Shown here in pieces: positions 4,521 to 53,581 of a DNA stretch of 64,000 nt. How positions within the stretch are numbered: the stretch's first letter is position 1; each line of letters starts with the position of its first letter. The notes beneath the pieces were generated by a model. It was not told the origin of the DNA. It saw nothing but the letters and a program-made list of their open reading frames with translations, and made no database searches. A program made the position numbers and the translations under genes. The DNA is taken from positions 1-64,000 of IMG/VR virus record IMGVR_UViG_3300043411_002794, one strand, 5' to 3'. This stretch comes from a virus.

Positions 4521-4536
4521 GGGTTTCTAATTACCT
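4521..4536 (-). repeat. dispersed 14-16 bp motif, copy 1 (AGGTAATTAGAAACCC)
   Basis: Exact match seen in the intergenic gap after the giant ORF. Confidence 0.9.
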
Positions 4537-4545
4537 GACCAAGGC

Positions 4546-7500
4546 CTACACAGTACCAGAAGGCCCCGGATCGATCATCTTCATTATGCTTTCGGACGCA
4601 CGCGGGATCGCTGCCCGCACCAGACCCATCCCGGCACCCATGCCCGCGGCCTGCACCCGCTCGCGGTCGATCGTCTTCTGGGGCAGCTCGCGGCCGTAGT
4701 ACGTGTCGAGCAGATGCCGCATCACTTCGTTCATGGCCAGGCCGCCGACGGCGCCGATGGCCGGCTGCACGATGAAGGGAGCAGCAGGGTGCGTGACGAG
4801 CTCGTGGAGCCCGGCTTCCTTTCCGATGGTGCGGCGAACAGTTTCTCCCACATAATCCGGCATCATGTCAGCAATGACTTTGCTGGCGCTGAGTTGGCCG
4901 GCAACATGTGGAAGTTGGTGCAAAATCGGAGACAGCCATGTCCCGTTACGACGCATTTGCGGGGCATAGTTCCAGTTGCCGAAAAAGCGACCGAGTTCCA
5001 GCGCTTTACCCAATGTCGAGTGCGCCCCTGCAAGATGCGCTGCTGTTTCATCCAACAACGGTTCTGCTGTCCTCGCGATAAACGAACGACTCCGCCTTGC
5101 CTTAGATGCGAGTCTGGCCACGAGTGGAAGGCCGGCAGGATCGGCATTGTTAATAAGCCCGTGCATTACTTCATGCCGCCGCGTATTGATCGCCGAAAGG
5201 CTTGGCGGCGTACGAACAACACCAAGACCCATACCCGGATAATACGTACCGTCGGATTGGCTTCCCTTCATCGCATAATCCACGTCAGAAGAACGTACCG
5301 ACGTGCGACCACCAACAGCCCGTAGGTTAAACCCGCTCGGCGTATCCGGGTTGCCGATCTTGCTCGGCCGTACCATCGTGAACGTGCGGCGACCAGCAAG
5401 CATCTTCGGGATACTGGCAGCTTCCTTTTCGGACTCGTCTGCCCCGGCCGGCACGCCTGCCAAGGTCTTGGCGGCCTGTAGGCTGCGCGTTCCCACCGCG
5501 CGCAGGGCATTACCGAAGCCCGCTTCCTTGTCCTGCTCGCCGTCGGCGATTATCGCACCGCCTTCGCACCGTGCGATTTTTTTAGCTGTCAGAGCTCCGG
5601 TACCCGAGACGTCCATCCCCAGGGCTTCAAGCAAGTTCTGGACCTGCGGCTGAGACAGAAAGTCAGGGCTCAGCGGTACTTGCGGCTCTTTCTTCCACCG
5701 CGGCAGGGGCTCGACGCCCGCCTGCTTGGTTGCCTTTTCCTCATCCTGTCGTGTCGTTTTCGGTTTTTTGGACTGTAGTCCGCGATAAAGTCCATACCCG
5801 CCCAGCGATGTCGCCGCGCCGCCGAGCCCCAGCTTGGCGACAAGCACAGCAAGCTCCCGTTGCGACGGTTGCGACGGTTGCGACGGTTGCGACGGTTGCG
5901 ACGTCGCAGACTGTCCGCTGCGAATAACTTGCGGACTAGCCGGCGTACGGCGGGGGGCGGCGATGCGCCGCACCGTCGGCACCACTTTCTTGACAGCCGC
6001 CACGGCAGGGGCAACCGCATCTGCGGTCGGCAGCAATTTCGCCGGGTTGTAAAACGCGTGATCGAAGACAACTCCGCGACCGCCATCATTGCTGGGCGGC
6101 ATCATCCCGTGCATAAAACTTCGCAGCAGGTTCTGATTTTGCGTGTAAGAGGCTTCAGTGGGATAAGCAGCACGCTCCGCATCATTCAGCGCAAAATCCC
6201 ACAAATCCGTCAACCGCTCTTTGCCGTACGGCGTGATCTTGTGGCCGTAGCCTCCCCCCAACAATGCCGCATAATCACCCTTCAAAAAATCAAGCGACCC
6301 GCGAGGCTCCACCGTCCGATAATTCCCAGACGGTACGCCTTGCCCCTTGGCGGCTGTGAACCACTGTTCCCCGACATCCTTAAAATAAGATTTCGCGTCA
6401 TCCACCGGCAGCCCAAATGAACGACGCAGCAGCTCACGACGCATGTCGGTTGTGTCGGCCTCATACCAGCCGTGCGTCGTCGACTTAGCGCCCGGGCTTG
6501 AATTCAACGCACTCTGTAGCACCTTCTCTGCATCGTACCCAAACGGGTCTACCCGATCGATTACGTGCTCAAGTGCCTTGTCGGCGTACGGGAAATGTCG
6601 TGCAATTCTGCCGGCCGTTTCAGCGATATCCGGACCGTATTGCGTACTGAGCACGGCGTCGGCCCCCATGGTGGCGAGCAGCCCTTGATGGGCAGTACGC
6701 ACGACATTACCTGCCAACTGGCGCGTGCGATCTAATACCCGTGGCGGCCGAACCGCGCCCGTCGGCAGTTGTGGTCGATGTAGCCCCGGGATGCGCGGAG
6801 CTACCAAGAACTTAGCGGCCCTCCCCGCTGCAATTTCCATGGCATTCGGGGGCTTTGCTGTCGGTTTGAGCTTGCTCGCCAACGACCGCAACTGCAGCTT
6901 GAAACCAGCCTGCTTCGTGACCGAGTGCTCGGCCGCCGTGTCCGGCGAATCGGACTTGGCTTCCATCATTTGGTAGATGCTCTGGGGCATCAGCCCCAGC
7001 GTGGCCGGCCAATCGATCGCTCCGGCCTTCTTCTCGGTCTTCTGGCACTCGTGGCACAGCTCGGCCCGCTTCTCCCGGATCAGCTTCCCGCCGTGGCATC
7101 GGCAACCTTCGATGCGATGGCCGCAGGATCCCAGCACGCAGCCGTGTCCCATTGTGAGACCGTCCATCTGGTCGTCGGTCAGCGGACCGTTGTACGACTC
7201 CCAGAGGGAGCGATCATTTGCCATTTTTTCCGTCTTCGGTTTTTCTGGTCGTAACCAGCGATAGAGTCCGTAACCACCGGCCGCGGCCGCTGCACCACCA
7301 AGCCCCCACTTTGCTGCAGTCGGCATGTCAGCCCAAAACTGCGACATACGAGACACTCCGGACGACGCTGGCGGTGAAACAACTGGCGGTGAAGCGGCGG
7401 TCGGCGTCGCAGCCGCGGCATCGCTAGTTGCTGGTACAGTCTGCGTCGCTACAGCCGCAGACGGCGGCAAATTACGCGGCGCACCGCGCTGATTCAACAA

Positions 7501-9099: not shown

Positions 9100-9242
9100 G
9101 GCACGAGCCTCCTGCTCGCTGTGCATCGGGGCCGCGTAGGCGCCGATCTGAAAGAGAACGCAGACTGCTGCTAGGCAGCCCAAGGATACACGATAGGCTT
9201 GGTGGAACACTACGGAAACTCCTCAACAAACGGGGCTGGATC

Positions 9243-10810: not shown

Positions 10811-11329
10811 CTAGACCAAATCGATGCCGCGTCGCTTCTCCTGCACGGCCGGCACGGCGCCGGGCACGAAGTCATTGACCCAGGTCAAGCCGAGCTCGGC
10901 GAACTTGGTGGGCAACTGCAGGGCCAGTTGTTCGTGCCCCTGCACGCAGTGCCGATGACAATGCCAGGCCATCAACGGGGAGCAGTCGTTACGAGCGTCG
11001 ACGGACAGCGAAGACCACATCTGGTGATACATGTGCCCCTGCAGGATCACGCCGCTATTGGGCGTAATGCCGCTCAGAACGTCGTAGAACTGCATCACCT
11101 CGGTCGGGCCGATCGCCATGAGCAAGGCGCCCTTGGTGTCGCTGTTGGGCCCAGCGGCCGGGGGCATGATCCAAACACCCGTACCGACGCGTTCGGTGTG
11201 CGTCGGCCAGCGGCGAAAGAGTTCGTGGTGCGGCGGGAGATCCGACAAGCGGAGCGGGGCCGGTCGCAAGCGGCTCAGACAGCCGAGCGGGTGGAGATCG
11301 CCAATTACGTCTTCAACGAAAGTAGCCAT
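10811..11329 (-). CDS. hypothetical protein (172 aa)
   Basis: ATG 2 nt after motif copy 2. Confidence 0.7.
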   Translation of the reverse strand: MATFVEDVIGDLHPLGCLSRLRPAPLRLSDLPPHHELFRRWPTHTERVGTGVWIMPPAAGPNSDTKGALLMAIGPTEVMQFYDVLSGITPNSGVILQGHMYHQMWSSLSVDARNDCSPLMAWHCHRHCVQGHEQLALQLPTKFAELGLTWVNDFVPGAVPAVQEKRRGIDLV

Positions 11330-11331
11330 TT

Positions 11332-11347
11332 GGGTTTCTAATTACCT
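11332..11347 (-). repeat. dispersed motif, copy 2 (AGGTAATTAGAAACCC)
   Basis: Exact match filling nearly the whole gap between a TAG stop and the next ATG. Confidence 0.9.
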
Positions 11348-11633: not shown

Positions 11634-11640
11634 AGATCTC

Positions 11641-20117: not shown

Positions 20118-20142
20118 AACAACCTCCCTGTCATAGCTAAGG

Positions 20143-20186
20143 AAAAAGCAATGGGCCCCGGGCGTTCTTCGCCTCGGGGCCCATTG
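20143..20186 (-). terminator. Rho-independent terminator
   Basis: Perfect 12-bp stem CAATGGGCCCCG/CGGGGCCCATTG followed by CTTTTT on the minus strand. Confidence 0.8.
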
Positions 20187-26222: not shown

Positions 26223-26919
26223 GCTTTTTCTTTCGTCGTGGTTTGGCTTCAGGTTCCTTCTCGTGCAGCACGAACGGCACGGACAGGCCCTCGGAATAAG
26301 TGGCGACGCCCAGCATCATGACGAATGCCGCGTCGCATAGATTGTCAGCCCCGGTCTTCTCGTACGTCTCCGGATCGAAGTCGGTCCCAAAGACCTTGTT
26401 GCAGGCCCGGATCATGTCTTCCTTGTTGGCCGTGCCCTTCTTGATCATCTCAGCTTTATGCAGGGCAAAAGCCTTGATCTCACGGATCCCGACACCCTGG
26501 CAGGGAACGTCGTTCTCCTGGCACCAATAGGCCACGGCGCCCTTGAGCACGCCGAAGAACTCCTGGGTCGAAGCAACGCGGGCAATGATCGCCTGAATCG
26601 GCTGCGGGCGGCCCGGCTCCTGAGGCGGCGTAAACCGCACGTCCTCGAACAACACGACGTCCGGATCGACAATCGCCAGGAACTGGCGTAGTCGCAAGAG
26701 TCGCATCATCGAGGTGTCGTACGGGCCGGTGGAGAGATCCCACAGTTCCAGGTAGCTCCGCACAGACTCCTGCGGCTGCCCGGGTACGATGTCGCAGAAA
26801 GCCGCCCCGCAGTTGGTGCCGAGATCGAGGCCCAGCACGCGACACGTGTCCGCACTCTTTCGGGCAACGCCCCGTTGATAGACGCGGGGATCTTTCTGCA
26901 TCGTGAAGATGGCGGTCAT
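26185..26919 (-). CDS. RuvC-like Holliday junction resolvase
   Basis: VLGLDLGT, VVLFED, IREIKAFA and DNLCDA give the D/E/D/D catalytic set. Confidence 0.8.
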   Translation of the reverse strand: MTAIFTMQKDPRVYQRGVARKSADTCRVLGLDLGTNCGAAFCDIVPGQPQESVRSYLELWDLSTGPYDTSMMRLLRLRQFLAIVDPDVVLFEDVRFTPPQEPGRPQPIQAIIARVASTQEFFGVLKGAVAYWCQENDVPCQGVGIREIKAFALHKAEMIKKGTANKEDMIRACNKVFGTDFDPETYEKTGADNLCDAAFVMMLGVATYSEGLSVPFVLHEKEPEAKPRRKKKHGKKAKEEPADE

Positions 26920-27788
26920 TACAACCAGAATCGCCCTGCGGCGACCTCCCGGAATGTTTCGTAGGTGCGATGAATGACGAGGCTGTCGTAAGCTCCGCCG
27001 TGGGCATTTATGTTATCGACGCCGTGCCGAATCGCTAGTCGGTACTTAGGCGTGATCCAGTTGTCGAGCGACCAGCGGACATTGTAAGGCGGCTTTGCGA
27101 TCCGCGTCTGCCAGCTGTAGAGCGAGTCCTCCGGGAACGGAGCAGAGTATTGCTGGACCGCTTTCTCCATCAGGCCGACGTCAAAGATCGTGGTATTGCT
27201 CCACGACAACGGACGACCGTAACGGTGCAAGAAGCCATCCAGCATGTACCGATCGAACTGGAACAGATTAGCGCCGACGGTGAGCCGGTGCTTGCCGAGC
27301 ATCTCGCTAAGAAACGCATGCAGCTGCTGCGTCGCCAGCTCGGCCGGAATGCCTTCGCGCTGCAGCCGCTCCGGGGTGAAATGGTACGTGCGACCCTTCT
27401 CCGCAAAGCGTTGCTGCAGGGCCGTCATCCGGCTGCAGACCCAGTCCCAGGAGACGAAGGGATGCCGGGACCAATCGAAAACGATGCTGCCGCAGTGTAC
27501 GACCTGCCGGTTTCTAATTACCGCCCAGCCGGCTTCCAGAACCAAGTCGACGAGAAAGTCCACGCCGGTCGTTTCTAGATCCAGCACAAAGTAGTCATCG
27601 GAATGGATACCCTGGGCCATCCAGTGCAGCATGTAATTCCGCAGATTCCACAGCTGTTGCTGCAGGTCCTGCGGATCTTCATACGGACGGACTAACTCCG
27701 CCGGAGCAGCTTCAACCAACCCCGCTTGATCGCCGAGCCCAGGCGGTACAGCGGACGACGCTTCAGGGAGAGAAGTTCGGCCAAACAT
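26919..27788 (-). CDS. DEDDh 3'-5' exonuclease (DnaQ-like)
   Basis: VLDLETTG, ANLFQFD and AHGGAYD motifs. Confidence 0.88.
   Translation of the reverse strand: MFGRTSLPEASSAVPPGLGDQAGLVEAAPAELVRPYEDPQDLQQQLWNLRNYMLHWMAQGIHSDDYFVLDLETTGVDFLVDLVLEAGWAVIRNRQVVHCGSIVFDWSRHPFVSWDWVCSRMTALQQRFAEKGRTYHFTPERLQREGIPAELATQQLHAFLSEMLGKHRLTVGANLFQFDRYMLDGFLHRYGRPLSWSNTTIFDVGLMEKAVQQYSAPFPEDSLYSWQTRIAKPPYNVRWSLDNWITPKYRLAIRHGVDNINAHGGAYDSLVIHRTYETFREVAAGRFWL
27509..27522 (-). repeat. dispersed motif, copy 3 (GGTAATTAGAAACC), intragenic
   Basis: Exact 14/14 match inside the exonuclease CDS (codons for A-V-I-R-N-R). Confidence 0.85.
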
Positions 27789-39042: not shown

Positions 39043-39453
39043 TCAGTCGACATTTTGTGGCACGGCCGGTGTCGAACACTGTAGGTCGTAGGCCTTGTCG
39101 AGTTCCGAGTGATACAGGTGATGCTCGGCAAAATGTGGCGTAACGATACCCGGAAAGAGCATCACATAATCGCCCTCTTCGTTGAGCAGCCCCCATACCG
39201 GTACGCCCGGCGCACTACTGCGGGGTACTGCCTCCGGGTCGTACCAGTGGAGCCGTCGCAGTTCAAACTCAAACATGGTGTCCAGCAAATGTGCAACCCA
39301 TTCCGTGCAACCCGTGCCGGAGAGCAGCTCGCTGCGGTTGAACATCTGCTTGATCTGATCCGGAGTGGGCTCCGGGTCATAAAGCATGAAGTGTTGTTTA
39401 CCGAGGCCGCGAATGTGATCGCCAAACGTATACAGAGAAACGGGAGCGATCAT
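39043..39453 (-). CDS. hypothetical protein (136 aa)
   Basis: ATGA-coupled to the polymerase stop. Confidence 0.65.
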   Translation of the reverse strand: MIAPVSLYTFGDHIRGLGKQHFMLYDPEPTPDQIKQMFNRSELLSGTGCTEWVAHLLDTMFEFELRRLHWYDPEAVPRSSAPGVPVWGLLNEEGDYVMLFPGIVTPHFAEHHLYHSELDKAYDLQCSTPAVPQNVD

Positions 39454-42400
39454 GCGGCCATTGCCTCTTCATAGGTCTTGGGCGGATTCAACATCCACCG
39501 CGGAAGATTGCGCTCGGCAACTTCCTCTTCACTGATGTGCTCACCCCAGTGGATGAACATTTCTTTGTCGATGCCGAAGTAGTACGGCCCCGCATTCAGC
39601 GGCGTGCCGTCCAGGTCCCGTGGTTGGAACGGAACCGACGTCATGCAGCGGGCCATCGTGTCGTAATAAACACGGGCCGCATGCTCAACGGGCACCAACA
39701 GAATGATCGCATCGTGGATCTGCAGCATCAGATGGTAGTAGAACTCGCGGGGATCGAACTGTTTGCGGTAATCAACGAAGTTGAACAACATCTCGTTGAC
39801 CGCTTCGGCCACGCCGTTTTGAATCCCGAAGTTCTGGAACTGCCGCTGCTGCTCGCCGATCACTTGGCGGTCATTTGTGGACTGCAATCTTCGATAGCTA
39901 AGATACGCTCCGCTCATCCAGTGCTGGTTTACGGCCCGTTCACGACAGCGGGCCAGATAAGCATCAACGCCGGAATAGTCATGCAGGTAGCTATCGATCA
40001 TCGCCTGGCACTGATCAACGGTGACGTTCACGCCTTCTTCGGCACACTGCCGGGCGATGGCTTCCGCCGACCGCCCGTACGGGATACCGAAGTTCACGTT
40101 TTTGGCCGCCACATAAAGGCCCTTGTTGCCGGAGTCGCTAAGACCCTTCTTCGTCGGAGCGCACGACAACTGAAACGTGGAACAGGCCCGGCGGGCATGC
40201 ATACCGAAGTAGTCCGGATCGTCCTCTTCCAGATCATTACGCCGGACGTGTTCGATCATCAGCGTATCCTGGGCCTGCCAGGCCAATACGGCCAACTCGG
40301 CGCCCTTGATATCTGCTTCAATCCCGACGTAGCCCGGCGGCACGGTCAACACGGAGCGGATGGGATGGTGATACAACCGTTCGACGCGGAAGATGTCCTT
40401 GTAGGCGCCGTTCAGAATGCGGTTGTAATCGTCCTCGCGTCGCTTCGAGATGTTCTGCAAATTCGGCCTGCGACTGGCAAACCGACAGGTTTCGAGCGTC
40501 TGCAATAAGTGCGTCCGCACCCGGCCGTCGGTACACATGGAGCCGAGCAGGCCGGCGTCATACTCGAAGTTGCCGTCTTCGTCCCGGTTGAACTCTCCGG
40601 TCGATTCATCCTGCGTCGGTTTCCGCAGCACGGTCTTAACGACCTGCGTAAGAAACTTGAGGTCACGAAGCTGCCGCGCAAGCGGATTACGGTGGCCCAG
40701 GATGCCAAGCACTTCTTTGTCGACGGACGGGGCGAAGTTGCCGTCTTCGCGGCGATTGATCAAATCGACCCACAGCTTCTTCCGCTTGCCGGTACTCGTG
40801 ATCGGCTGCAGTCCCAGCGACACAGGTTCCGGATGACCCGGTTCCGGCGTCGGTCGGATCCGCACGAACTGCCCGGTCTGCTTGTCGCGCTTACGGGCAT
40901 ATTCGTCACCGAACAACATGGCGACGCATTGCGGATGGCTCTGATGATTGAAGTTCGGCCAGTTGAGTTTGGTGCGCAAGTCGGCCAGCAACACTTCGCT
41001 GGCCTGCAAGAACACCGAGGTCAGCTCGTCCGCCCGATCCTTATCGATCTGGAAGCCGCACCGTTCCATCTCCAACACCGCCGCAGAGGCTTTGTGATGG
41101 CGATGATACGCGGCCCAGCAGTTGTTACCGAACCGATCGGCGTCCAACAACCCGCCCGGCTTCGTGTGCTGCACGTGGATCCGCAGCGTCACGTCTACGT
41201 CGTAGCAGCCGTAGTGCGGGTTCGTGTCGCCCCGTCGCAACTTGTCAGGGCACAACACTTCCGCCGGACATTCGCCGTACCCTTCCAGGTCCTCGAACTT
41301 GAGATGGTTCACGCTGCAGAAGCGTTTCTTCCATTCGCTCAAAGCCGTGTCGTAGCGAGGACACGTCGTGAGCTTCATGGCCACTTCTTCCAGCTTGAGC
41401 CGTGCCGTCTCGTTAATCGAGTGATGCTCTAACGACGTATCCCAACCGCCCGCACGCGGGTCCGCAGGATCCGGGAAGTATTCGTCCCGTACGTCGAGCC
41501 CCTCGTTGACGAGCCACGGCATATCCGCCCGAAGGAAGTGCCCGCCAATCTTCACCCGACGCCCCGGCGTGCTCTTGCAAAGCCGCCGCATATGGAACAT
41601 CAGGCGTTCGATCGACGGAGAACAGGCCACGGCGCCGCCAGGATGCCGAAGCACCAAGCAGCGGGCCCACTTCTCCTTGTAGGTGAACTGGATCGTACGC
41701 ACGTAAGATCCGGGCTCGCCCGGCTGCTCTCCGTGCCACTCAGCGTCCAGCGCGATCGTGCTGTTCTGCTCCACCGGCAACGCCAAGATCTCGTCCACAA
41801 CGCGAGACAACTCCCGCTCGGTGTAGATGTTGCCGTGATCGACATCCTTCTCCTCGGCTCCGACCTCGCCTCCGTTGATCATGTGCCAGAACAGCCGCAG
41901 CTGCTCCATGAACGGATCTTCAAGCTCAGGTGTCCGGTGCACGGCAGCAGGATGCAGGGCCGCCATGACGCGGATCTTATGCATCTGCGGCTGCTCACCT
42001 TCCCGAGCTTGCAGCGGAACCTCAATATCGATCACCCGGCCGTGCATGTTCGTGACACCGAACGACGACCCGAGCACCGCCTTAGAGGCTTCGGAGCCGA
42101 GACAGAGCAGGTACTTCGGCCGCACGAGCCGCAGCTCTTCGTGGAGCAGCGGCAGGCAATTCTTGATCCACGTCGTCGGCATGCTGCCGAGATTCGGATC
42201 AAGGGCCCCGTGCTTCACGAGGTTGGTGACGTACCAGCTATTGGCGACGTCGGTCGGAATGCCGAGCTCGTACACCGCTTTGTGCAGCTCATCGCTTGCC
42301 GGGCCGATGAAGTTGCATCTGCGCGACAACTCATCCTGCCCGGGCTGCTTGCCGAGAATCATGACGTCCGACTGCATCGGGCCGCCGCCGAAGTTGTCTG

Positions 42401-42752
42401 TGGAATAGCCCCACAGATGCCCCGGCACAAACTGAGCCGGCAAGAGCCGACCCTTGAGATCCACCTGGATCATAAACGTCGGGTCATACAGAGCCCGGCG
42501 ATAGAGGTAGTGCAAACACGGACCAATGGATCGCAGGCGTTTATTGACGCCCGTGCCCATGAAGACCGTGTCGGTGTCGCCCATCAATTCTGCTTGCCGC
42601 AGGAAGTCGGGTCCCGGCAAGGGCATCCCGACGGCGTCCAGCGGATAGAACGGGAATTCGCGGTCGAGATGTTCGCTCGGTCGTCCCTGCAAAATCCCTG
42701 AAAAAGCTTCCAACGTCTGTTCGTAGCTCGTTGGAACGGCAGTTGTCGTCAT
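39450..42752 (-). CDS. polA: family A DNA polymerase with N-terminal uracil-DNA-glycosylase-like domain (SPO1-type)
   Basis: UDG4-like GKQPG...FIGPAS...TNLVKH...LHPAAV; Exo LDAEW; motif A DIKGAEL, motif B AAKNVNFGIPYG, motif C QIHDAI. Confidence 0.93.
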   Translation of the reverse strand: MTTTAVPTSYEQTLEAFSGILQGRPSEHLDREFPFYPLDAVGMPLPGPDFLRQAELMGDTDTVFMGTGVNKRLRSIGPCLHYLYRRALYDPTFMIQVDLKGRLLPAQFVPGHLWGYSTDNFGGGPMQSDVMILGKQPGQDELSRRCNFIGPASDELHKAVYELGIPTDVANSWYVTNLVKHGALDPNLGSMPTTWIKNCLPLLHEELRLVRPKYLLCLGSEASKAVLGSSFGVTNMHGRVIDIEVPLQAREGEQPQMHKIRVMAALHPAAVHRTPELEDPFMEQLRLFWHMINGGEVGAEEKDVDHGNIYTERELSRVVDEILALPVEQNSTIALDAEWHGEQPGEPGSYVRTIQFTYKEKWARCLVLRHPGGAVACSPSIERLMFHMRRLCKSTPGRRVKIGGHFLRADMPWLVNEGLDVRDEYFPDPADPRAGGWDTSLEHHSINETARLKLEEVAMKLTTCPRYDTALSEWKKRFCSVNHLKFEDLEGYGECPAEVLCPDKLRRGDTNPHYGCYDVDVTLRIHVQHTKPGGLLDADRFGNNCWAAYHRHHKASAAVLEMERCGFQIDKDRADELTSVFLQASEVLLADLRTKLNWPNFNHQSHPQCVAMLFGDEYARKRDKQTGQFVRIRPTPEPGHPEPVSLGLQPITSTGKRKKLWVDLINRREDGNFAPSVDKEVLGILGHRNPLARQLRDLKFLTQVVKTVLRKPTQDESTGEFNRDEDGNFEYDAGLLGSMCTDGRVRTHLLQTLETCRFASRRPNLQNISKRREDDYNRILNGAYKDIFRVERLYHHPIRSVLTVPPGYVGIEADIKGAELAVLAWQAQDTLMIEHVRRNDLEEDDPDYFGMHARRACSTFQLSCAPTKKGLSDSGNKGLYVAAKNVNFGIPYGRSAEAIARQCAEEGVNVTVDQCQAMIDSYLHDYSGVDAYLARCRERAVNQHWMSGAYLSYRRLQSTNDRQVIGEQQRQFQNFGIQNGVAEAVNEMLFNFVDYRKQFDPREFYYHLMLQIHDAIILLVPVEHAARVYYDTMARCMTSVPFQPRDLDGTPLNAGPYYFGIDKEMFIHWGEHISEEEVAERNLPRWMLNPPKTYEEAMAA

Positions 42753-42762: not shown

Positions 42763-42777
42763 GGTAATTAGAAACCC
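42763..42777 (+). repeat. dispersed motif, copy 4 (GGTAATTAGAAACCC), inverted
   Basis: Exact match on the plus strand in the 27-bp primase-polA gap. Confidence 0.9.
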
Positions 42778-42779
42778 GA

Positions 42780-43895
42780 CTACCAGGCAGGCAACGTGAT
42801 ATTGGCCTGGAAAGCCGCATTGCGAATCATTTGAACGTCGAGCTCGTGAGTGTAATCGCCCGGATCGAATTTGTCGGGCAAGCGCACCATTGCGACCGGG
42901 CTAGTGCCGAGTCGCTGTAGCTCGCGGAGGATCCCTTCCGATTGTTGAATGGCGTCATTGTCGAGCATGATGATGATCGGCTTGCCGGTCCACGTCCGCA
43001 GCAGCATCTGCTGCGGGCCGGTGAGAGTCTTGCCGAGCAACGCCACTGCCGGGCCGCCGATGCGCCACACGCTCGGAGCCCCTTCCACCACGACCACGAA
43101 GGGCCAGTCTTTGGCCGTATCGAAGTTGTAGAGCATCCGACTCTTCGGCATGCCCGGACGGCCGTAGTACTTGGGAATACCGCTGGTCTTCCAGTCCACG
43201 TCTTCCAGGTACCGTGTCTGCCAGCCGACGAGCTGGCCCTGCATCTTGATCGGGATGTACAACCGATCGCGGGCGGCCCAGAAGTCCCGCTCCGCTTCCA
43301 GCACATAACCGATATCGAAGGCCTGCTGCAAATATTCCGGCGTGTACTGACGACGCCCGATGTACTGCAAAGCCTTGTGACCCGGATACAGCTCACTAAG
43401 CCGCAGGATCGATCCCGGCGGGCGGACCTGAATCAGCGCGGAGGAGATATCCTCTCCCGGCAAGATGACGGCCTCGCGTCGCATATGGCGACCGATGCTG
43501 CGGAAGATCAGATCTTCCAATGCCCGCCGATTGCCGAAGGTGTCCATGCACGGCTCGTTGAAGCAGTGGGCGAGCCAATGCTGCGGAGCCCCGCGGTCAT
43601 CTTCTTGTCCGTACAAATAGTTGATCCACAGCCGCTGCCGTGAATCGTGACAGAACGGACAATTGACCCGGTAGTACTCGCCCCAGGTCAAGGGACGAGA
43701 CTGCCGACGACGGTTGTTAAACGGCCCCGCCGGCAATCCGGAAGATGCCCGACTGAAACTGTCGCCCGGCATCGTCATGGCCGTCGCCGTCGCCATCGCC
43801 GGAGCGCCGGACATCTGAATGCCCTCGTTGGCGATCATGACGTGTTTGAACTGCTGCACCAGCAAAGAGTAAAGCAGCGGGTTTAATCCTGGCAT
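42780..43895 (-). CDS. DNA primase (Zn-binding + TOPRIM)
   Basis: CPFCHD...HCFNEPC; VVVVEG and LDND; start MPGLNP in TAATG overlap with the DnaB stop. Confidence 0.88.
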   Translation of the reverse strand: MPGLNPLLYSLLVQQFKHVMIANEGIQMSGAPAMATATAMTMPGDSFSRASSGLPAGPFNNRRRQSRPLTWGEYYRVNCPFCHDSRQRLWINYLYGQEDDRGAPQHWLAHCFNEPCMDTFGNRRALEDLIFRSIGRHMRREAVILPGEDISSALIQVRPPGSILRLSELYPGHKALQYIGRRQYTPEYLQQAFDIGYVLEAERDFWAARDRLYIPIKMQGQLVGWQTRYLEDVDWKTSGIPKYYGRPGMPKSRMLYNFDTAKDWPFVVVVEGAPSVWRIGGPAVALLGKTLTGPQQMLLRTWTGKPIIIMLDNDAIQQSEGILRELQRLGTSPVAMVRLPDKFDPGDYTHELDVQMIRNAAFQANITLPAW

Positions 43896-45589: not shown

Positions 45590-45591
45590 TG

Positions 45592-46281
45592 TTATCCTTT
45601 CGGGCTAGTCATTTCGCGCTGAATCTGCGTAGCTTCATCGCGAATAGGTTGCGGCAGCGTCGGTAGTAATCGGTCGTACGCAACGCGATTGAACAGGTAT
45701 TCCACGGCGGCCTGACGGAGAAAGTCCGCCGCCAATTCATGCAGACCAAACTCAGTTGCCATGCAGTACCGCAGCAGCGGTCCCGCCTGCACGCGGTGTC
45801 GGTCACAAATAGCCGTGACCTGAATGGCTCGATCCGTTTGGGCCGGATAGAGTCGTTTCAAAGCCCAGATCTCGGTCTGCACGACTTCCCGTTGTCGATG
45901 CCACGACTCGGCAATCTCTGAGCTGCGCTCGGCGGTGATCTGGTAATAGTGCGAAAGAATATCACCGTGTGTCAGCGTATTCGGGGCAGGCGGCGTACGC
46001 CCGCGACGAAGTGCAAACGCCGCCTGGATGTACACGATCGGATCGAGCTGGTGCTGCGTGAAGAAGTCGGCCAGCCGCGGCCAGATCGGCCGGTGGTTAC
46101 GACCAAACGAATCGCGACCGCCATCCCAGTGCGGGATCTCTTCATCGCCGTAGGTCAGCGCCGACGGACACGCACGACGATACTCGGCGCAGTAGATGCT
46201 CCGAATAAACGTCGGCAGTACCGCTTCGGTGATCTCTCCCAAACCTTCGCCGAGAGAGATTCCTCGTCTCGGGTCGGTCAT
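45592..46281 (-). CDS. hypothetical protein, possible helicase loader
   Basis: Between SF2 helicase and DnaB; helical, YIQAAF...PAPNTL; role inferred from position. Confidence 0.55.
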   Translation of the reverse strand: MTDPRRGISLGEGLGEITEAVLPTFIRSIYCAEYRRACPSALTYGDEEIPHWDGGRDSFGRNHRPIWPRLADFFTQHQLDPIVYIQAAFALRRGRTPPAPNTLTHGDILSHYYQITAERSSEIAESWHRQREVVQTEIWALKRLYPAQTDRAIQVTAICDRHRVQAGPLLRYCMATEFGLHELAADFLRQAAVEYLFNRVAYDRLLPTLPQPIRDEATQIQREMTSPKG

Positions 46282-47792
46282 AGGAAAGATCTCGTCATTT
46301 CGGCTTGGCCAATTTGTCGCTTACCCTGGTCCCAGTCCTGATCCCACTCCAGTTCCTTGTAGGTTCCATAGCGGGACTTGGAGCGACGCAAGAAGTCGTC
46401 GTCCCAGTAGTCGATCGTGTCGATCACCTGGCCGTACTCTTTGCCGTCGTGCAAACGAGAGGCACGACCAGGGCCCTGGGTATCCAGGATTTCCGAACTG
46501 CGGGCATCGGCCCGCACGACGGTCTGCAGGGCGGTGAAGTCGACGCCGGTCGCCCAGACGTCAGTGGCGATCACTCGCTTGAGCTGTTGCTGTTCGAACG
46601 CGAGCTGCATGTTGTAGCGCACTTCCGACGTCACATCGACGAAGTGCTGCGGCAACATTCCCGTCGCCTTGTAGTTGTTGAATTCCTCCGGCTTCATTTC
46701 CGCATAGCACAGCGCGAAGTCTTTCAACTCCTGCCACAGGTGCACGGCATGCTCAACGGTCTCGACCAACACGAGCACCTGCTCGTCGGCCGGGATCGTA
46801 CGAACCTCGTCGGCGATGATCCTGTTGCGGAACGCATTTCGCCAGATTCCCCATCGCTTCTGTGCCGTGTCCTTCTTGCCCTTCGCCGGATTCTTGTCCA
46901 TGCGAATCGGCAACCAACGTACGCGGATCGGAACGACCAACCCGAGACGCACGGCCTCGGCGTAGGACATCTCGAAAAGCAACGGGCCGAACAAACCTTC
47001 CAACCGGACTTCGGCTCCATCCATCCGACCGAACGGCGTGGCGGAGAACCCGAAGTTACGGCTAAACCGATAAATCTCGGCCAGCTTGTTGGCATAGTTG
47101 TCGGTCACCAGCTGGTGACATTCATCGCCAAAGAGGAAGTCGGCGTCGCCGTTGCTGCGATGCACGCTATCGGCCGTGATAACCATGACGCGCCCCCACT
47201 GGGCCTTTCCGCCGCCCAGCATCCCGACGCTCGGCAAGTACTTCCGCAGCTGCCGCATGATACGACTGGCCACGGCTACCTGCTTCACAACGATGTGGAT
47301 GTTGGCATACGGATAGCGAAGCGCCATGGCGCAGATCAGCGAGGTCTTACCGAAACCGGTCGGAGCCTTGATGACCCCGCCGCGGTGGCGATCCATCGTC
47401 TCCACGCACTCCTGCTGCCGTGCCCGGTACTGCAGCACCTGCTCGATGTTGTTGGCAAACAGCTGGAAGCGATTCGGTCGATGATGATCGGCCGTCAGAT
47501 CGAGCTCACGGACATGGTGCCCGAGCGAACGAAGCTTCTGTACGATCGACTGTGCGAAGCCGGCCGCACAAGTAAAGCGGCCTTCGTCCAAACGATAGAG
47601 CGTCCGTGTCTGCAGCGAGACGGGGCGGTAGACGCCCTCGGGGTTGGCGTACGCTGCGCGGCCGCGAAGAAAAGTTTTATGGGTGTAGGTCAGCCCTGGC
47701 GCCAGGGCCGAGACTATCTCGGGAGGAAGAGGATTCTTTCCGTCCGGCGAGACGTCGATGAGATTTGCGCTGCGACGAATAAGAATGTGCAT
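46278..47792 (-). CDS. superfamily 2 helicase (UvsW/XPB-like)
   Basis: APTGFGKT, DECH, GFSAT, ATDVWATGVD and QGPGRASR; start MHILIRR. Confidence 0.9.
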   Translation of the reverse strand: MHILIRRSANLIDVSPDGKNPLPPEIVSALAPGLTYTHKTFLRGRAAYANPEGVYRPVSLQTRTLYRLDEGRFTCAAGFAQSIVQKLRSLGHHVRELDLTADHHRPNRFQLFANNIEQVLQYRARQQECVETMDRHRGGVIKAPTGFGKTSLICAMALRYPYANIHIVVKQVAVASRIMRQLRKYLPSVGMLGGGKAQWGRVMVITADSVHRSNGDADFLFGDECHQLVTDNYANKLAEIYRFSRNFGFSATPFGRMDGAEVRLEGLFGPLLFEMSYAEAVRLGLVVPIRVRWLPIRMDKNPAKGKKDTAQKRWGIWRNAFRNRIIADEVRTIPADEQVLVLVETVEHAVHLWQELKDFALCYAEMKPEEFNNYKATGMLPQHFVDVTSEVRYNMQLAFEQQQLKRVIATDVWATGVDFTALQTVVRADARSSEILDTQGPGRASRLHDGKEYGQVIDTIDYWDDDFLRRSKSRYGTYKELEWDQDWDQGKRQIGQAEMTRSFL

Positions 47793-47846
47793 ACGTCCAC
47801 CGTATTTCGTATCCGGAAGACTTGCACACCCCAACAGCTTGCGCTA

Positions 47847-48407: not shown

Positions 48408-48458
48408 TTCTCAACTCCGAGCGCGGTCGGCCATCCTAGCTTCGTGCCATATGGCGTG

Positions 48459-49388
48459 TCAAACAGTAGTCGCGAACTCCGCGAGGTGCGACTTATAAGC
48501 CGTGAGCTCATCATCAGTTTTGAAGATTCTAGTCGGATCAAAAACATCAACCTGCTGTCGATTGAGTCCCTGCAGCCAGGTGTAATTCAGGAACGACAAG
48601 AACATTTGTGAGGCCCGCAGATCACCCCGCGCGCCGCGTCCGGCAGCATGCCAGATGCGCCACAAGAAATGCCCGGGGATTTGCATCTCAGCCGCGGAAG
48701 GCGGTTCCCGGTGCTGCCATGCTGCTAGCACGCAGAAGTTGCGTCGCGACTGCGCATCAATCACCAGCGACGTTGACGACGAAACCTGGGCCTGTTGCTG
48801 CACGTCGAGCCCCATGAACCGCCGCAACTTGTTGGTACGGTAAGGAGTATCCGAAGCAACATACCAACGCGGATCGCGAATCGCCGCCACCACGTGTGCG
48901 ACGAAGTAGGGATGCAGATCCTGCAGAAAACACAGCGAGGACCATGCCGGATGCCGTCGCAAGAGCTCGAGTCCCGTGGCGTCCAAGTCACCCGCATTTT
49001 CACGTAATCGTTTTGCCAGGGCATAGGTCACGTAATCTCCGGCAGTCATCGTATGCCAGCCGCCTAGTGCCGGCGGCAACGAACACTGCCGCATCCGAAA
49101 CAAAGCAATCTGCGGATTCTGCAGCTCGCGACGCGTGCTGCAAAGCAACGGACTAGCCACCTCAAAACGAGCCACCGACTGACCCAACTGCTGGTAGAGG
49201 CCTACCAGCAGGTCCACGTTGCCCTCGGTGCCGAGCAGACGAATACTGCGCGGCCGGGTGAATAACGGCCCAGTCACAAAATTGTGTGACGGCATACGAG
49301 ACGAACACGGCGACCGCGTACCGTCGGAGTACCACACGATGCCGTCCGGCGCCGTGTGAATTTTAAGCGTAAGTTCTTCGGCAATCAC
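48459..49388 (-). CDS. IS110/Nop-domain-like protein, RuvC catalytic residues apparently lost
   Basis: HPAW...AHVVAAIRDPRWY...KLRRFMGL and RASQMFLSFLNYTW match the Transposase_20/Nop pattern; N-terminal LKIH where IS110 has GID. Confidence 0.55.
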   Translation of the reverse strand: MIAEELTLKIHTAPDGIVWYSDGTRSPCSSRMPSHNFVTGPLFTRPRSIRLLGTEGNVDLLVGLYQQLGQSVARFEVASPLLCSTRRELQNPQIALFRMRQCSLPPALGGWHTMTAGDYVTYALAKRLRENAGDLDATGLELLRRHPAWSSLCFLQDLHPYFVAHVVAAIRDPRWYVASDTPYRTNKLRRFMGLDVQQQAQVSSSTSLVIDAQSRRNFCVLAAWQHREPPSAAEMQIPGHFLWRIWHAAGRGARGDLRASQMFLSFLNYTWLQGLNRQQVDVFDPTRIFKTDDELTAYKSHLAEFATTV

Positions 49389-49406
49389 GGGTACGGCGCT
49401 CCGTAA

Positions 49407-51617
49407 TTACAGGGAGATGACGTGGTCGAACAGCGGCGCGAGTTCTTCTTCGTGCGTGACGATGATCACCTGCAGGCCGCGATCGGCCAGGATCCCGCGT
49501 AAACGGTCGAACACCGGGGCAAATGCGGCAATCGCCTTCTTGTCGAGATAGGCGGTTGGCTCGTCGAGGAACAGTACATCCAGATTCTCAGCGAACTGGA
49601 CGGCGGCAGCAATCCGGAACAACCAGGCAAGCAGGGTCTTCTGCCCGCCGGAAAGCCGTCGAGCACCCTGGCGGCGGCCGTCGTGAAAGAGGGCTGAGAA
49701 GTTCAGCGAGTCGTCGGCCATGACGGTAAACGGGGCGTCGCAGATCCGGAGCAAGTCGTTCAGCTCGCCCTCGGCCCGCTGCAAACGGGTCTGCAGCACG
49801 ATCTTTTGCGATTGCTTGAGGGCTTCCTGAACTTCCGTGCCTTCCTGGATCCAGTTACGCATCCGGTTCGCCTCAGCAATCCGCTGCGACATCCGTTGCG
49901 ACTCGGCCAGCAGCTGCTCGACCTGCGGCCGCAACCCGGCTACCCGCGTCGAGCAGGTCACGTGGAGCTGCTGCTGCGACGTACGCTGCATGATCCGCGT
50001 GGCGGCCGCCTGAGCCTCTTCCGGCTTCGGTGCGTTCAGCCAACGCTGCGTAAGGGCCTGCAGCTGCTCCTGCTTGGCCGCTATCGATCCTTCCGACTTG
50101 GCGACGCGTTCTTCGATCGTCGAGATCTTGGCCCGTACCTGAGTCAGCATCACCGATGCCTCGTCGTAGGTCTTGATCTTGGACTGCCACTCCACGGCGT
50201 TGCCGTCGACCGGCGTCAACGTCTGCGGCGACTGAAGTTGCGTCCGCAGCGTCTTGAGTTCGCTTTCACGCACGGCATTAGCCTGCGACCAAGCCGCGTG
50301 CGCCTGCTGTTGCTGTACCCGCTTCGCCCGGGCCTGCTGATAAGTCGTAGTAGCGGCTAGGTATTGATCTGCAGCCTGTTGAGCAACAGCCCGCAACTCC
50401 GTAAGCTCGGCCTGCAGAGTAGCCAGTTGCTGCGACTTACCCGGGATTCCGGCCTCCACCTTGGACACGGTGTCCGCGATGTTGGTCGTAGGAGTCCGGC
50501 ACGTCGGGCACTCGGCAATCCCGGTCAAACGAAACTGCGAAACATACGACTGATCCTTGAGGATCTCGGCAGTAATAGCCGCAATCGCATTGCCCAGCTC
50601 GGCGACGCGGGGATTCGTTTCCGGCGGCTTCGGCGCCTCCGGTTCGGCATCGACGGTCGGTTCGGGTGTACCGCTCCGCTCCAGCACGGCAACACGGTCC
50701 TGCCATTGCTGCCGCTGCTCCAGCACTTGCTGGTAATTGCGCAAGTTGATGATCGCCGCCCGAATCGCGTCCACGTTCTGGCGTTCCGCGGTGATCATGT
50801 TCTCCAGGCTAAGCGCCGCCGATCGCAGTTCAATCAGCGAGGACTTGTCCGGAAAGATCGCTGCGGTGAGCTGGCTGATCTCCATCGCCAAGGCGTCCTG
50901 CTGCCCGGTGGCGGCAAGATACCCGGCATAAGCATCTACGATCTTTTGATCGGCAGACTGGGCCGTCGCGAAGTCCGCGATCGAATCCACTACCGCCAGT
51001 TGCTGCTCGGCCTGCGCCAATTCAGCTTGCTTCTGCTGCAAATTAAGCAGCAGCGTATCGAGGTTGCCCTGCGTCTCCGCAGGCACCTGCAGCTTAGAAT
51101 CGTGGTCGGCGATCGCCTTGATGCAGCGGGCCGCGTGCGTCGTGTCGAACAGCTGCTGAAACAGCTTCAGCCGTACCTCGGGCTGCTCGGCCAAGAACCC
51201 GAAGATATCTTCCTGGGCCACGAGCATAAAACGATCCACGAGCTTCGGATCAAGCCCATACAACTCGGCCAGCTTAGCGGTGACCTTCGTCTCGCCGGCC
51301 GCCGCCAGGACGCCGTCGTACTGTAGCGTCGCTTGATCCGTGTCGGGACGGAGGCTGCGGTACAACTCGAAGTTGTGTCCGCGCTTGGTCATCTTCATCC
51401 GCGCGTTCGCCCGTTCGTGCGGCGGGGCGAGCTGGTAGATGTTTTCCTGCTTGGTCCCGAAGTTCGGGTTCAAGCCGGTCCACAGCCATTTCACCGCCGC
51501 CTGGATGTTTGACTTACCGGACCCGTTCGGCCCGATCAGGGCCGTGATTCCAGGCCCGAATTCAAGCACACGGTGACTGTGCTGGCACCAATTGACCAGC
51601 GTCAACTCCGTAATCAT
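49407..51617 (-). CDS. sbcC: SbcC/Rad50-like ABC ATPase (gp46-like)
   Basis: GPNGSGKS, coiled coils, CPTC Zn hook, LSGGQK, FLDEP and IIVTH. Confidence 0.93.
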   Translation of the reverse strand: MITELTLVNWCQHSHRVLEFGPGITALIGPNGSGKSNIQAAVKWLWTGLNPNFGTKQENIYQLAPPHERANARMKMTKRGHNFELYRSLRPDTDQATLQYDGVLAAAGETKVTAKLAELYGLDPKLVDRFMLVAQEDIFGFLAEQPEVRLKLFQQLFDTTHAARCIKAIADHDSKLQVPAETQGNLDTLLLNLQQKQAELAQAEQQLAVVDSIADFATAQSADQKIVDAYAGYLAATGQQDALAMEISQLTAAIFPDKSSLIELRSAALSLENMITAERQNVDAIRAAIINLRNYQQVLEQRQQWQDRVAVLERSGTPEPTVDAEPEAPKPPETNPRVAELGNAIAAITAEILKDQSYVSQFRLTGIAECPTCRTPTTNIADTVSKVEAGIPGKSQQLATLQAELTELRAVAQQAADQYLAATTTYQQARAKRVQQQQAHAAWSQANAVRESELKTLRTQLQSPQTLTPVDGNAVEWQSKIKTYDEASVMLTQVRAKISTIEERVAKSEGSIAAKQEQLQALTQRWLNAPKPEEAQAAATRIMQRTSQQQLHVTCSTRVAGLRPQVEQLLAESQRMSQRIAEANRMRNWIQEGTEVQEALKQSQKIVLQTRLQRAEGELNDLLRICDAPFTVMADDSLNFSALFHDGRRQGARRLSGGQKTLLAWLFRIAAAVQFAENLDVLFLDEPTAYLDKKAIAAFAPVFDRLRGILADRGLQVIIVTHEEELAPLFDHVISL

Positions 51618-52492
51618 CGAGTCTCCATGGAGATATTTCGTAAAGGTTTGTGATAACCGCCGACTTCACGTTCATCGACAGTCAGCGTTTTGACGCACCA
51701 TTCCTGCAACTGCATTGCACGCGCCCGCTGCGGATCGTATTCAAAGTTGTAGTCGCACTGCTCAGTAAGAAACACGGCGACCTTGCGGGGCAGCGCCGGT
51801 GCCGCCCCACTAAACAAAACCGACGGATCCGTACGCTGGAAACAACTTCGACACTGCCCGTCGACGTACCAACCGCCGCACCGACCGCAGAAAGAAAAGT
51901 TGATCCGCGGTAACTCGCAGTCAAGTTGCGCAGACTCTTCGTTGTACTTCACGAGAGTGACAATCGAATTATCCAGCACCTCGCAAAGCGGGTTGTGGTC
52001 GGCCATCGTCAAAATTGTGGCCCAGTTTTCGCGAAGCGCACCAAACACGGAACGGACGACGGCACCCTTCTCGCCCATCAAGCAGAAGTTGGCTGTCGAT
52101 CGATACCGGGGCGGCGGCTCGGTTGTCGGGCTGTACTCGTCGGCTGCCTTAGCCTGCGCATAATCCGGCGAGTTCGGCTGCAACAAAAAGTGCGAATCAC
52201 CAGGACCGGGCAAGGTATCCAACCAACGGGCGCCGGCGAAGTACATGCTGCGCATCTTCCAGTTCAGCGCTTCGCGAATGCAATACCGACAAACGACACC
52301 GCGGAACAATGTCCCCGGTCCGTAAAAATACGTCACCCGCCCGGTAGTCTTGCGAGTCTCCGGATCCAACAGACGAACAATCTCGTCGTCGGACAGCTGC
52401 GGTGCAATTCGCCGAATGTCCGCATGGCCCGGCCCATAAATTACGCCGGTACGTTCCGGCGGATTTAAGCTGTAGTCTGTGGTGTCTGGCAT
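51614..52492 (-). CDS. hypothetical Zn-binding protein
   Basis: CRYC and CGRC...CRSC; sits between sbcD and sbcC; start MPDTTD. Confidence 0.65.
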   Translation of the reverse strand: MPDTTDYSLNPPERTGVIYGPGHADIRRIAPQLSDDEIVRLLDPETRKTTGRVTYFYGPGTLFRGVVCRYCIREALNWKMRSMYFAGARWLDTLPGPGDSHFLLQPNSPDYAQAKAADEYSPTTEPPPRYRSTANFCLMGEKGAVVRSVFGALRENWATILTMADHNPLCEVLDNSIVTLVKYNEESAQLDCELPRINFSFCGRCGGWYVDGQCRSCFQRTDPSVLFSGAAPALPRKVAVFLTEQCDYNFEYDPQRARAMQLQEWCVKTLTVDEREVGGYHKPLRNISMETR

Positions 52493-53565
52493 GTGTCCCG
52501 TTCGTACTGCGCGTATTGTTCTTTCGTCTCGGCGTCCGGATCCGGTGACGCCAACAAACGGGCGCACCGCTCCTGCACGCGCGGGTTCAAGCTGACGACG
52601 CGCACGGCGGCCGCCAGTGACTCCGTCGTACTGGGCGGCAGTTCCCGTACGGCGATTTCCATCTCCATCTGACGCGGAATACGCTTCCAGAAAAGATGGC
52701 AGTTCCCGCTCGCAGCCTCGGTGAGCCGCGAGTACACATCCGGAACATCTTCATAGAAGATGATACGAACAAGCGGCAGCAGTTGCTGGTCGCAATGCTC
52801 AGAGATCGTCAGCCCGCTCCGCATGAACGTACAAAGCTGATCCAGTTCTGCGGCCGCACTAATCGTGAACTCGAAGTACGGCCGTGTACGCAAATAGATC
52901 GGCGTCGGATCGGTCATCGCCGTGTCGAGCAGGAACACGCACTTCTGCGGCGGCTCGGCAATGTTGCGCATATGCGTCGAGCCGGTGGAAAGAACCTTCA
53001 TCCGCTGCCCGGTCTTACCGACGGCTTCCTTGATGTAGGTGTCGTGATAGTCGCCAGTGAGTACCCAACCGGCGTACGGAACATCAACAAACGCTCCGTC
53101 CGTCTTACCGACGCCCATCACGTCCGACCACACCTCGTGGCAAAGCAGCACGGACGTATCCGGCGAGATCTCGTCGAGAGCTTGCTGCAACTCGATGCGC
53201 GGCAGCCAGTCCAGGCCGTACACGACGCTGTCGCCAAGCTGCTGGCTACGGCGATTCATATGCGTCGGATGCCCGTGCACCAACAACCACGGCGTCACGC
53301 GGTCCAGTTCGTGCTGACCCTGAATCACCAACACGGGCAGCCCTGCTTCCTGCATTCTGTCCATTTGCCGACAGAAGCATTCCACGGAGCGGGGGTCAGG
53401 ACGTCGCTTCTCGAAGACGTCGCCTAACAAGAACAGCGGCAACTGCATGCCGATCGCAATATCGACGACCTGTGCAAAAGCACGGTAAGCGTCCCCGTCA
53501 ATTTCCGGTCGATCGACCCAAGCACCTGGGGAAAGGTGCGGGTCGCCGCAAACGATTGCTCGCAT
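52465..53565 (-). CDS. sbcD: SbcD/Mre11-like metallophosphoesterase nuclease (gp47-like)
   Basis: GDPH, LGDVF, GQHE and GDYH motifs. Confidence 0.9.
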   Translation of the reverse strand: MRAIVCGDPHLSPGAWVDRPEIDGDAYRAFAQVVDIAIGMQLPLFLLGDVFEKRRPDPRSVECFCRQMDRMQEAGLPVLVIQGQHELDRVTPWLLVHGHPTHMNRRSQQLGDSVVYGLDWLPRIELQQALDEISPDTSVLLCHEVWSDVMGVGKTDGAFVDVPYAGWVLTGDYHDTYIKEAVGKTGQRMKVLSTGSTHMRNIAEPPQKCVFLLDTAMTDPTPIYLRTRPYFEFTISAAAELDQLCTFMRSGLTISEHCDQQLLPLVRIIFYEDVPDVYSRLTEAASGNCHLFWKRIPRQMEMEIAVRELPPSTTESLAAAVRVVSLNPRVQERCARLLASPDPDAETKEQYAQYERDTCQTPQTTA

Positions 53566-53581
53566 GGGTTTCTAATTACCT
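53566..53581 (-). repeat. dispersed motif, copy 5 (AGGTAATTAGAAACCC)
   Basis: Exact match forming the entire gap: TAG-GTAATTAGAAACCC-ATG(sbcD). Confidence 0.9.

Follow-up and report, generated by a model that had tools for sequence, protein, structure and literature searches.

An evenly dispersed, invariant 14-nucleotide word in a large uncultured phage, possibly the core of a phage-specific promoter

Introduction

Jumbo phages that encode their own RNA polymerases carry an AT-rich, near-invariant and phage-specific motif of about 10 nucleotides that can be detected bioinformatically and that, wherever it has been tested, is an early promoter: transcription starts 6 nucleotides downstream and single changes are strongly felt (PMC7598289, PMC5312081). 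Another repeated short word, the start-associated sequence (SAS) of Cluster K mycobacteriophages, is found close to start codons, and its function is itself still unresolved (PMC3203893, PMC12699233). Here, we describe a 14-mer, GGTAATTAGAAACC, that shares features with both. It is repeated in the first 64,000 nucleotides (bases 1-64000, hereafter the window) of the IMG/VR virus record IMGVR_UViG_3300043411_002794, which is 192,194 bp long, rated 93% complete and called G000 below. The phage belongs to an uncultured clade with genomes of about 200 kilobases (kb) that is abundant in metagenomes and encodes a cellular-type RNA polymerase. The 14-mer is under strong selection, lies mostly at gene junctions and is spaced more evenly than expected. 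We tentatively read it as the core of a phage-specific promoter that would give leaderless or short-leader mRNAs and some antisense RNAs.

Results

The 14-mer is invariant and concentrated at gene junctions

Exact copies of GGTAATTAGAAACC occur at five places in the window, four on the minus strand and one on the plus strand. At the window's GC content of 60.3%, 1.5e-4 copies are expected by chance, in agreement with the initial annotation, which had arrived at about 1e-4 by assuming 62%. That annotation had also located the five copies to within 1-2 bases and had rightly assigned four of them to intergenic gaps and one to a coding sequence, now seen to be an exonuclease-like gene. Allowing up to two mismatches added no copy to the five; under the same threshold, 100 dinucleotide shuffles averaged 0.14 matches and none reached five. 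A codon-usage-based gene caller placed 207 of the 214 genes of the record on the minus strand, so minus-strand copies are counted here as sense. The window copies are as follows.

4522-4535, minus strand: copy 1, sense; the longer 16-mer GGTAATTAGAAACCCA covers 4520-4535
11333-11346, minus strand: copy 2, sense; its base 1 is overlapped by the TAG stop of an upstream open reading frame (ORF) of 95 amino acids
27509-27522, minus strand: copy 3, sense and intragenic, in a 266-amino-acid DEDDh/PolIII-epsilon-like exonuclease gene (26919-27719)
42763-42776, plus strand: copy 4, antisense to the genes, in the 27-nucleotide gap between a primase-like gene and polA, 10 nucleotides before the polA ATG
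53567-53580, minus strand: copy 5, sense; its base 1 is overlapped by the TAG stop of an upstream 113-amino-acid ORF

In the whole record, 11 exact copies and two of AGTAATTAGAAACC make 13, nine sense (minus) and four antisense (plus). The record is cut at its left end: a Logan contig of a 98.7%-identical strain (L477) extends it by 5.8 kb or more and adds some 15 small genes along with two further sense copies, each 13-14 nucleotides 5' of an ATG that has a Shine-Dalgarno sequence (SD-ATG). The 12-mer GTAATTAGAAAC is the most frequent of the genome, the motif heads the over-representation of words of 12 to 14 nucleotides, and its sub-words are the only truly intergenic-enriched 8-mers; other repeated intergenic words turned out to be collagen-like coding repeats and a hexamer array. 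Non-coding DNA makes up 6.5% of the genome yet contains 11 of the 13 copies (binomial P 6e-12). Exact-word scans of viral, metagenome and genome collections returned single chance copies only, no other IMG/VR contig having more than one, and none of the loci found in the metagenome and genome scans was related to this phage.

Sense copies at junctions are better described by the 16-mer GGTAATTAGAAACCCA, which 7 of the 8 in G000 carry. Read in the sense direction, the motif has stop codons in two frames (TAA, TAG), and in 5 of these 8 it supplies or overlaps the upstream stop, which is either a TAA or TAG within the motif or a TAG that includes the motif's first G. The following ATG is found 1, 1, 3, 4 or 5 nucleotides away without a Shine-Dalgarno sequence, or at 21-50 nucleotides (with a Shine-Dalgarno sequence seen at 4522). 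A logo pooled from 43 sites reads c-GGTA[A/C][A/T]TA[R][R]AACC, followed by a base at +15 that is not T in 42 of the 43 and by a position enriched in A at +16. Beyond these two positions the logo showed no conservation and no second box.

Copy 1 lies 10 nucleotides past the TAG stop (4546-4548) of a 1554-amino-acid gene and 26 nucleotides before the ATG (4493-4495) of a small gene that has the Shine-Dalgarno sequence AGGAGG at 4501-4506:

4187-4495, minus strand: 102-amino-acid gene, followed by a strong hairpin and T-run terminator at about 4124-4163 (hairpin -22.5 kcal/mol)

The 102-amino-acid protein gave no family match; with the copy, the Shine-Dalgarno sequence and the terminator, its gene looks like a one-gene unit. 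Copy 2 is followed 3 nucleotides downstream, without a Shine-Dalgarno sequence, by the ATG of a 172-amino-acid gene (10811-11329). Copy 3, in the sole frame that it leaves open, reads ..G GTA ATT AGA AAC C.. and so uses rare codons, GTA making up 10% of Val codons and AGA 1.3% of the Arg codons of the phage. AGA is the codon that sense intragenic copies impose, and the phage encodes a tRNA-Arg(TCT) of 86 nucleotides that reads it (genome 168326-168411, minus; L101 8326-8411). Copy 5 has the ATG of an SbcD-like gene 1 nucleotide downstream, again without a Shine-Dalgarno sequence, and a weak hairpin with T5 directly upstream, at about 53589-53618. Copies 4 and 5 adjoin genes of the replication block, among which there are also methyltransferases:

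39450-42752: polA, a UDG-PolA DNA polymerase
42780-43895: primase-like gene
49407-51617: SbcC
52465-53565: SbcD-like nuclease gene
59279-60433: ATP-dependent DNA ligase

The word is conserved in close relatives and drifts in distant ones

Relatives are labelled here by their percent identity, namely 89% (that of polA), 72% and 63%, and three IMG/VR genomes (G001, G004 and G006) have a polA that is 49% identical. A locus search with the single polA protein gave no matches, and an alignment was needed to reach relatives. In the 89% relative, the motif is exact at three orthologous sites, antisense before polA, sense 1 nucleotide before SbcD, and inside the exonuclease gene. At these sites 42 of 42 motif bases are identical against 261 of 360 in the 60-nucleotide flanks, which indicates strong purifying selection. 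Copy 5 is exact there even though only 18 of the 60 upstream bases are. Copy 3 is exact as well (L191 13308) and absent at that place from the 63% relative, while copy 4 is exact (L103 9977) and has GGTAAATAGAAATC as its counterpart at the same polA junction of the 72% relative (L105). As for copy 1, the 16-mer is exact in a relative with a 76%-identical 102-amino-acid protein (L481), both spacers having changed in length. At other junctions, two copies of AGTAATTAGAAACA and one of TGTAATTAGAAATT were found in the 63% relative.

More distant genomes carry their own versions. In G001, GGTAAATARGAACC is the top 14-mer with 16 copies; G004 has 7 copies of its version, and G006 has 7 of GGTACTTAGRAACC. 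These three share the variant TAGGAACC, which contains AGGA, whereas the word of G000 reads TAGAAAC and has neither GGAG nor AGGA. The initial annotation had called the word a selected element and had suggested counting it in the full genome and in relatives. With the contrast between motif and flanks in the 89% relative, and with drifted versions in four more distant genomes, that view is strongly supported.

The 14-mer was not found in G002 and G003, which are as distant as G001, G004 and G006. G002 has a dispersed AT-rich palindrome of its own, TCATTGATATCAATGA with core TTGATATCAA, in 20 copies over 180 kb, about half of them intergenic (loci L222-L230), and G003 has TTGATAACAA/TTGATATCAA variants. 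As positional equivalents of the 14-mer these were ruled out at SbcD, whose starts there have ordinary Shine-Dalgarno sequences. In G004 (loci L203-L210), another word, GTCACAATGTACGAAGCCCACTGTAGG, occurs about 20 times on one strand and may be a repeat array. RAMP-like and Nop-like genes, to which the initial annotation had thought a link possible, are equally present in G002 and G003, and we reject that link.

Copies are evenly spaced and keep their polarity

The totals of 45 copies given below come from four genomes (G000, G001, G004 and G006) and one strain. In 4 of 4 motif-bearing genomes, a sense copy stands 1-7 nucleotides before the ATG of SbcD (1 nucleotide in G000, 2-7 in G001, G004 and G006), a protein only 32% identical. 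An antisense copy is found near polA in three genomes, 10 nucleotides before it in G000 and inside it, at two different places, in G001 and G006. Inside a 522-amino-acid gene of the structural region there is an antisense copy, at residue 423 for G000 and residue 64 for G001 and G004, and the structural block reads, in synteny order, + + - + in both G000 and G001. Each of the five relocated copies retained its orientation, which is weak evidence (P ~0.04).

The copies are spaced by about 12-16 kb. In G000, the coefficient of variation of the spacing is 0.45-0.57 against an expected 0.9, so that the copies are more even than random points or random junctions. Even spacing was also seen in G001, G004 and G006, with a combined P of 3.5e-4 for the four genomes. 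This gives some support to the genome-organising site that the initial annotation had listed among its possibilities. Such a polar site, or one linked to replication, could be where replication or condensation proteins load or pause, or a boundary for them, and it would agree with copies that shift by no more than about 2 kb, in some cases into a gene, while their rough location and their orientation stay the same. However, isolated flips (42763, 153763) interrupt the strand blocks, unlike what is seen with sites oriented by an origin or terminus, there is no known mechanism or reader, and the strict tie between a sense copy and the start codon of SbcD, seen in four genomes, suggests gene expression. 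We consider this role very improbable. Of the other possibilities raised initially, the number of copies rules out a single packaging site, and a site read by base pairing found no support.

Invariant and evenly dispersed sites, 7-16 per genome and some of them intragenic, would also suit the target of a site-specific nickase or endonuclease, in which case they would mark localized nicks of the kind that T5, tf and phiKMV-like phages have in their virion DNA. The ATP-dependent DNA ligase gene (59279-60433) is present in the motif lineages and was not detected in G002 or G003, and an HNH gene lies 50 nucleotides past the 70517 copy. Yet the known systems use one strand only (PMC3517423), whereas the motif uses both (9 minus and 4 plus in G000; mixed in G001, G004 and G006). 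The strong preference for non-coding DNA (P 6e-12) is unexpected for nicks, and neither G001 nor G004 has an orthologue of the HNH gene. A nick site is, to our mind, the most remote of the explanations considered.

A group of copies close to start codons and a group next to hairpins

Among the 23 sense junction copies, 11, spread over four genomes, sit 1-7 nucleotides 5' of an ATG without a Shine-Dalgarno sequence and the rest are 13-50 nucleotides away; at four sense sites other than these 11, an SD-ATG lies 13-26 nucleotides downstream of the motif. The proximity of the 11 copies is what would be expected of a sequence acting at the RNA level, either a stop-restart or ribosome-loading cassette resembling the SAS or the target of an RNA-binding or RNA-cutting protein. 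The two frames closed by the motif and the upstream stops that 5 of 8 sense junction copies of G000 give or overlap are in line with this. So is the G001/G004 variant, which has AGGA at Shine-Dalgarno distance and shares GG..ATAGGA..CC with the SAS consensus GGGATAGGAGCCC. Contrarily, the 45 copies include 18 that are antisense and 11 that are intragenic, with conservation of both kinds; at the other sense copies the ATG is 13-50 nucleotides away, and the G000 version has no Shine-Dalgarno core. The use of ATG at all 11 short-spaced copies is not significant against a background of 85%. A role at the RNA level seems improbable to us.

At the antisense junction copies, 5 of 10 are directly preceded, in the mRNA sense, by a strong hairpin, and the hairpin together with GGUUUCUAAUU resembles an intrinsic terminator. 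No such link was found for sense copies, and a general association of the motif with hairpins was not significant over 36 sites (Kolmogorov-Smirnov P 0.5-0.7); only the antisense junction copies show one.

A possible DNA-binding protein as reader of the motif

Copies that occur in both orientations, both of them conserved, and that are kept inside genes bring to mind the binding site of a lineage-specific and probably monomeric DNA-binding protein, that is, an operator, roadblock or architectural site that would tune or partition transcription. This is the main rival of the promoter reading, serious if rather unlikely. The word is invariant, sharply bounded at 14-15 bp and without a second box, and its placement at stop/start junctions is that of the mycobacteriophage stoperators (PMC9283540, PMC3203893). 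Several other observations point the same way. G002 has the dispersed palindrome TCATTGATATCAATGA instead, as would be typical for a regulator that binds as a dimer; the copy at 184.4 kb is placed like an operator behind a sigma70-like promoter; and the 5 of 10 antisense junction copies that abut a hairpin are hence at unit ends. The presence of the motif also does not follow the polymerase core (see below).

On the other hand, no candidate reader emerged. The genes confined to motif lineages are a ligase, an RNase H-like protein, an exonuclease and methyltransferases; co-occurrence yielded seven lineage-specific genes, all repair or methylation enzymes or unknowns, and the Atlas gave no DNA-binding lead. 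Neither a tyrosine nor a serine integrase was found in the 93%-complete record, in which no repressor search was run. A non-polar site would leave the kept orientation of moved copies unexplained, a weak point given P ~0.04, and a one-way roadblock would leave the conservation of both orientations unexplained.

A related and still less likely possibility is that the motif is a polar punctuation site, with a lineage-specific monomeric reader, dividing the 190-kb one-way genome into domains of about 15 kb. Facing with transcription, it would act as a restart or entry at gene starts; facing against it, it would supply the U-tract of hairpin terminators and block or end units. Selection would then act on approximate place and orientation, not on the neighbouring gene.

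The promoter reading and its polymerase

The phage encodes one cellular-type RNA polymerase, outside the window, as a beta-beta'N fusion with an intein (160199-165850) and a beta'C (157277-159148). A second polymerase set was not found in the 93%-complete record, and neither a sigma70 region 2 nor a sigma factor was found in G000. The 63% relative encodes, beside an N6_N4 methyltransferase, a 219-amino-acid protein with a match to sigma70 region 4 (L192 15934-16593); no counterpart was found in G000, G001 or G004.

Three sets of observations lead us to favour a promoter core, although only tentatively and from sequence. The first is the precedent of the jumbo phages, together with the phage's own polymerase and the sharp boundary of the motif with a purine downstream. 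The second is the short distances to an ATG or SD-ATG, which fit the geometry of start sites. The third comprises the unit-like contexts at 4.5 and 184.4 kb (the latter in the order terminator, motif, gene), the kept polarity and the even spacing, as expected for the units of a long one-way genome. In addition, the motif outranks every other word of its length in the genome and shows strong purifying selection, and the G004 orthologue of the 354-amino-acid gene behind the 92373 copy starts instead with a terminator and a TATAAT-like box.

In this reading, the motif would be recognized by the multisubunit RNA polymerase that the phage encodes, together with a specificity factor particular to the lineage, and transcription would start at the purine 1-2 nucleotides past it (the A of CCCA). 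Sense copies would restart transcription every ~15 kb or so along the nearly one-way genome. Where the ATG is within 1-7 nucleotides, the mRNAs would be leaderless or have leaders of at most 6 nucleotides, and elsewhere they would have leaders of 12-25 nucleotides bearing a Shine-Dalgarno sequence. The copies that face against the genes, both at or within polA and in the structural block, would drive antisense RNAs, as happens in phage PAK_P3, where such RNAs cover structural genes early in infection (PMC4933390).

A second element has to be considered here. Strong sense terminators are often directly followed by T-run+TAGCTAT(Y)(R)G (T-run+TAGCTATCAG) or by GCTAGG. The window has this instance:

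20133-20186, sense: hairpin at 20147-20186 followed by TAGCTAT at 20133-20139

Other instances of TAGCTAT are at genome positions 181564, 140964 and 97772, as well as in G001, G002, G003, G004 and G006; GCTAGG variants are at 184385, 144390 and 143490, and CTAGTA follows the terminator at 4128. Hairpin, T-run and TAGCTAT together make a candidate clade-wide terminator-promoter cassette.

Several points weigh against a promoter role of the 14-mer. With 27 sense and 18 antisense copies (40% antisense), there is no significant strand bias (P 0.23), and 11 of the 45 copies are intragenic. To our knowledge, the promoter classes of phage RNA polymerases face the same way as their genes. The distance from motif to ATG varies from 1 to 7 nucleotides, so that strict 5'-AUG leaderless starts cannot apply to every short-spaced site, and coupling to the upstream stop, often within the motif, would account for translation with no need of a start site. 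The copy at 184.4 kb has a sigma70-like TGACA-N17-TAGGCT immediately upstream, which would put the motif at about +1 to +14. The TAGCTAT composite, by comparison, occurs in each of the six genomes, also in the two that lack the 14-mer, invariably in sense orientation and between genes, and is at least as good a promoter candidate for the conserved polymerase. The polymerase core is 60-63% identical to that of motif-less relatives against 58-61% to that of a motif-bearing one; since presence of the motif does not track the core, the reader of the 14-mer must be lineage-specific. Altogether, the phage-specific promoter proposed in the initial annotation stays the best single reading, not a demonstrated one, and the 40% of antisense copies speak against a simple mRNA promoter.

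Other features of the record

Against isolated phages, the best match of polA is 22% identical; metagenomic homologues number in the hundreds, many on contigs of 150-230 kb. PHROGs gave no names for the structural genes, and Rfam found nothing in the first 124 kb of the genome. Besides the polymerase fusion (160199-165850), an 864-amino-acid protein (148047-150641) is interrupted by inteins, and an SF2 helicase of 504 amino acids in the window (46278-47792) has 880 amino acids with Hint/intein matches in the 89% relative (L103 3832-6474), a presence/absence difference of an intein. A 347-amino-acid ORF (window 495-1538, minus strand) has a counterpart with a precomputed Pfam match to PF26125 AcrVA2-like in the contig of the near-identical strain (L477). 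A contig end at window position 5888, inside the 1554-amino-acid gene, recurs in two independent assemblies. Three tandem repeats of about 55 nucleotides, each with TATTATAGGCTAAAGTT (genome 70913-71048; L096 10913-11048), stand in a 226-nucleotide gap between the 71572 and 70517 copies, and a rearranged relative of the motif, GGAAACTAATTAGGAG, lies on the minus strand at genome 154182-154194 (L100 14182-14194), directly 5' of the GTG start of an 847-amino-acid gene.

Discussion

The 14-mer and the element formed by a terminator and TAGCTAT are two concrete, cloneable candidates for the study of transcription and binding in a phage clade unrelated to cultured phages (best polA match 22% identical). 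Like the early promoters read by the virion RNA polymerases of jumbo phages, the 14-mer is AT-rich, near-invariant, phage-specific and found by over-representation alone, in a large phage with its own multisubunit RNA polymerase, and has a purine a few bases downstream. Classical cases, however, have two polymerase sets, against the one found here in a record that is 93% complete, and ~30-40 motif copies, against 13-15. Their promoters lie upstream of early operons and face with them, whereas here ~40% of the copies are antisense and a quarter intragenic, and the ATG is often 1-7 nucleotides from the motif.

In form, the closest look-alike is the SAS of Cluster K, also an asymmetric word of 13-14 bp with GG..CC ends that lies a few bases before an ATG, often holds the upstream stop and is kept across sub-lineages before different genes, with ~10-19 copies per genome. 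The SAS is typically 3-8 nucleotides before the start codon, mostly ATG; here, 11 of 23 sense junction copies are at 1-7. It differs by its AGGAG core, the G000 word having no Shine-Dalgarno core, and by being nearly all in one orientation and outside the structural half, where antisense and intragenic copies are conserved in the present case. The stoperators of Cluster A mycobacteriophages are likewise asymmetric sites of 13-14 bp, in many copies, in short gaps overlapping stops and starts. They face one way relative to transcription, unlike the 14-mer, and their reader is the immunity repressor of temperate phages; no integrase was found here, no repressor search having been run. With the nick sites of T5, tf and phiKMV-type phages the motif shares its number, a handful to 14 invariant short dispersed sites whose sequence co-evolves per lineage; those are on one strand only and have no tie to gene junctions. 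Compared with all these classes of phage motifs, the conserved antisense copies at polA and in a structural gene and the even spacing are unusual, and they would bear on the transcription and timing of very long one-way phage genomes.

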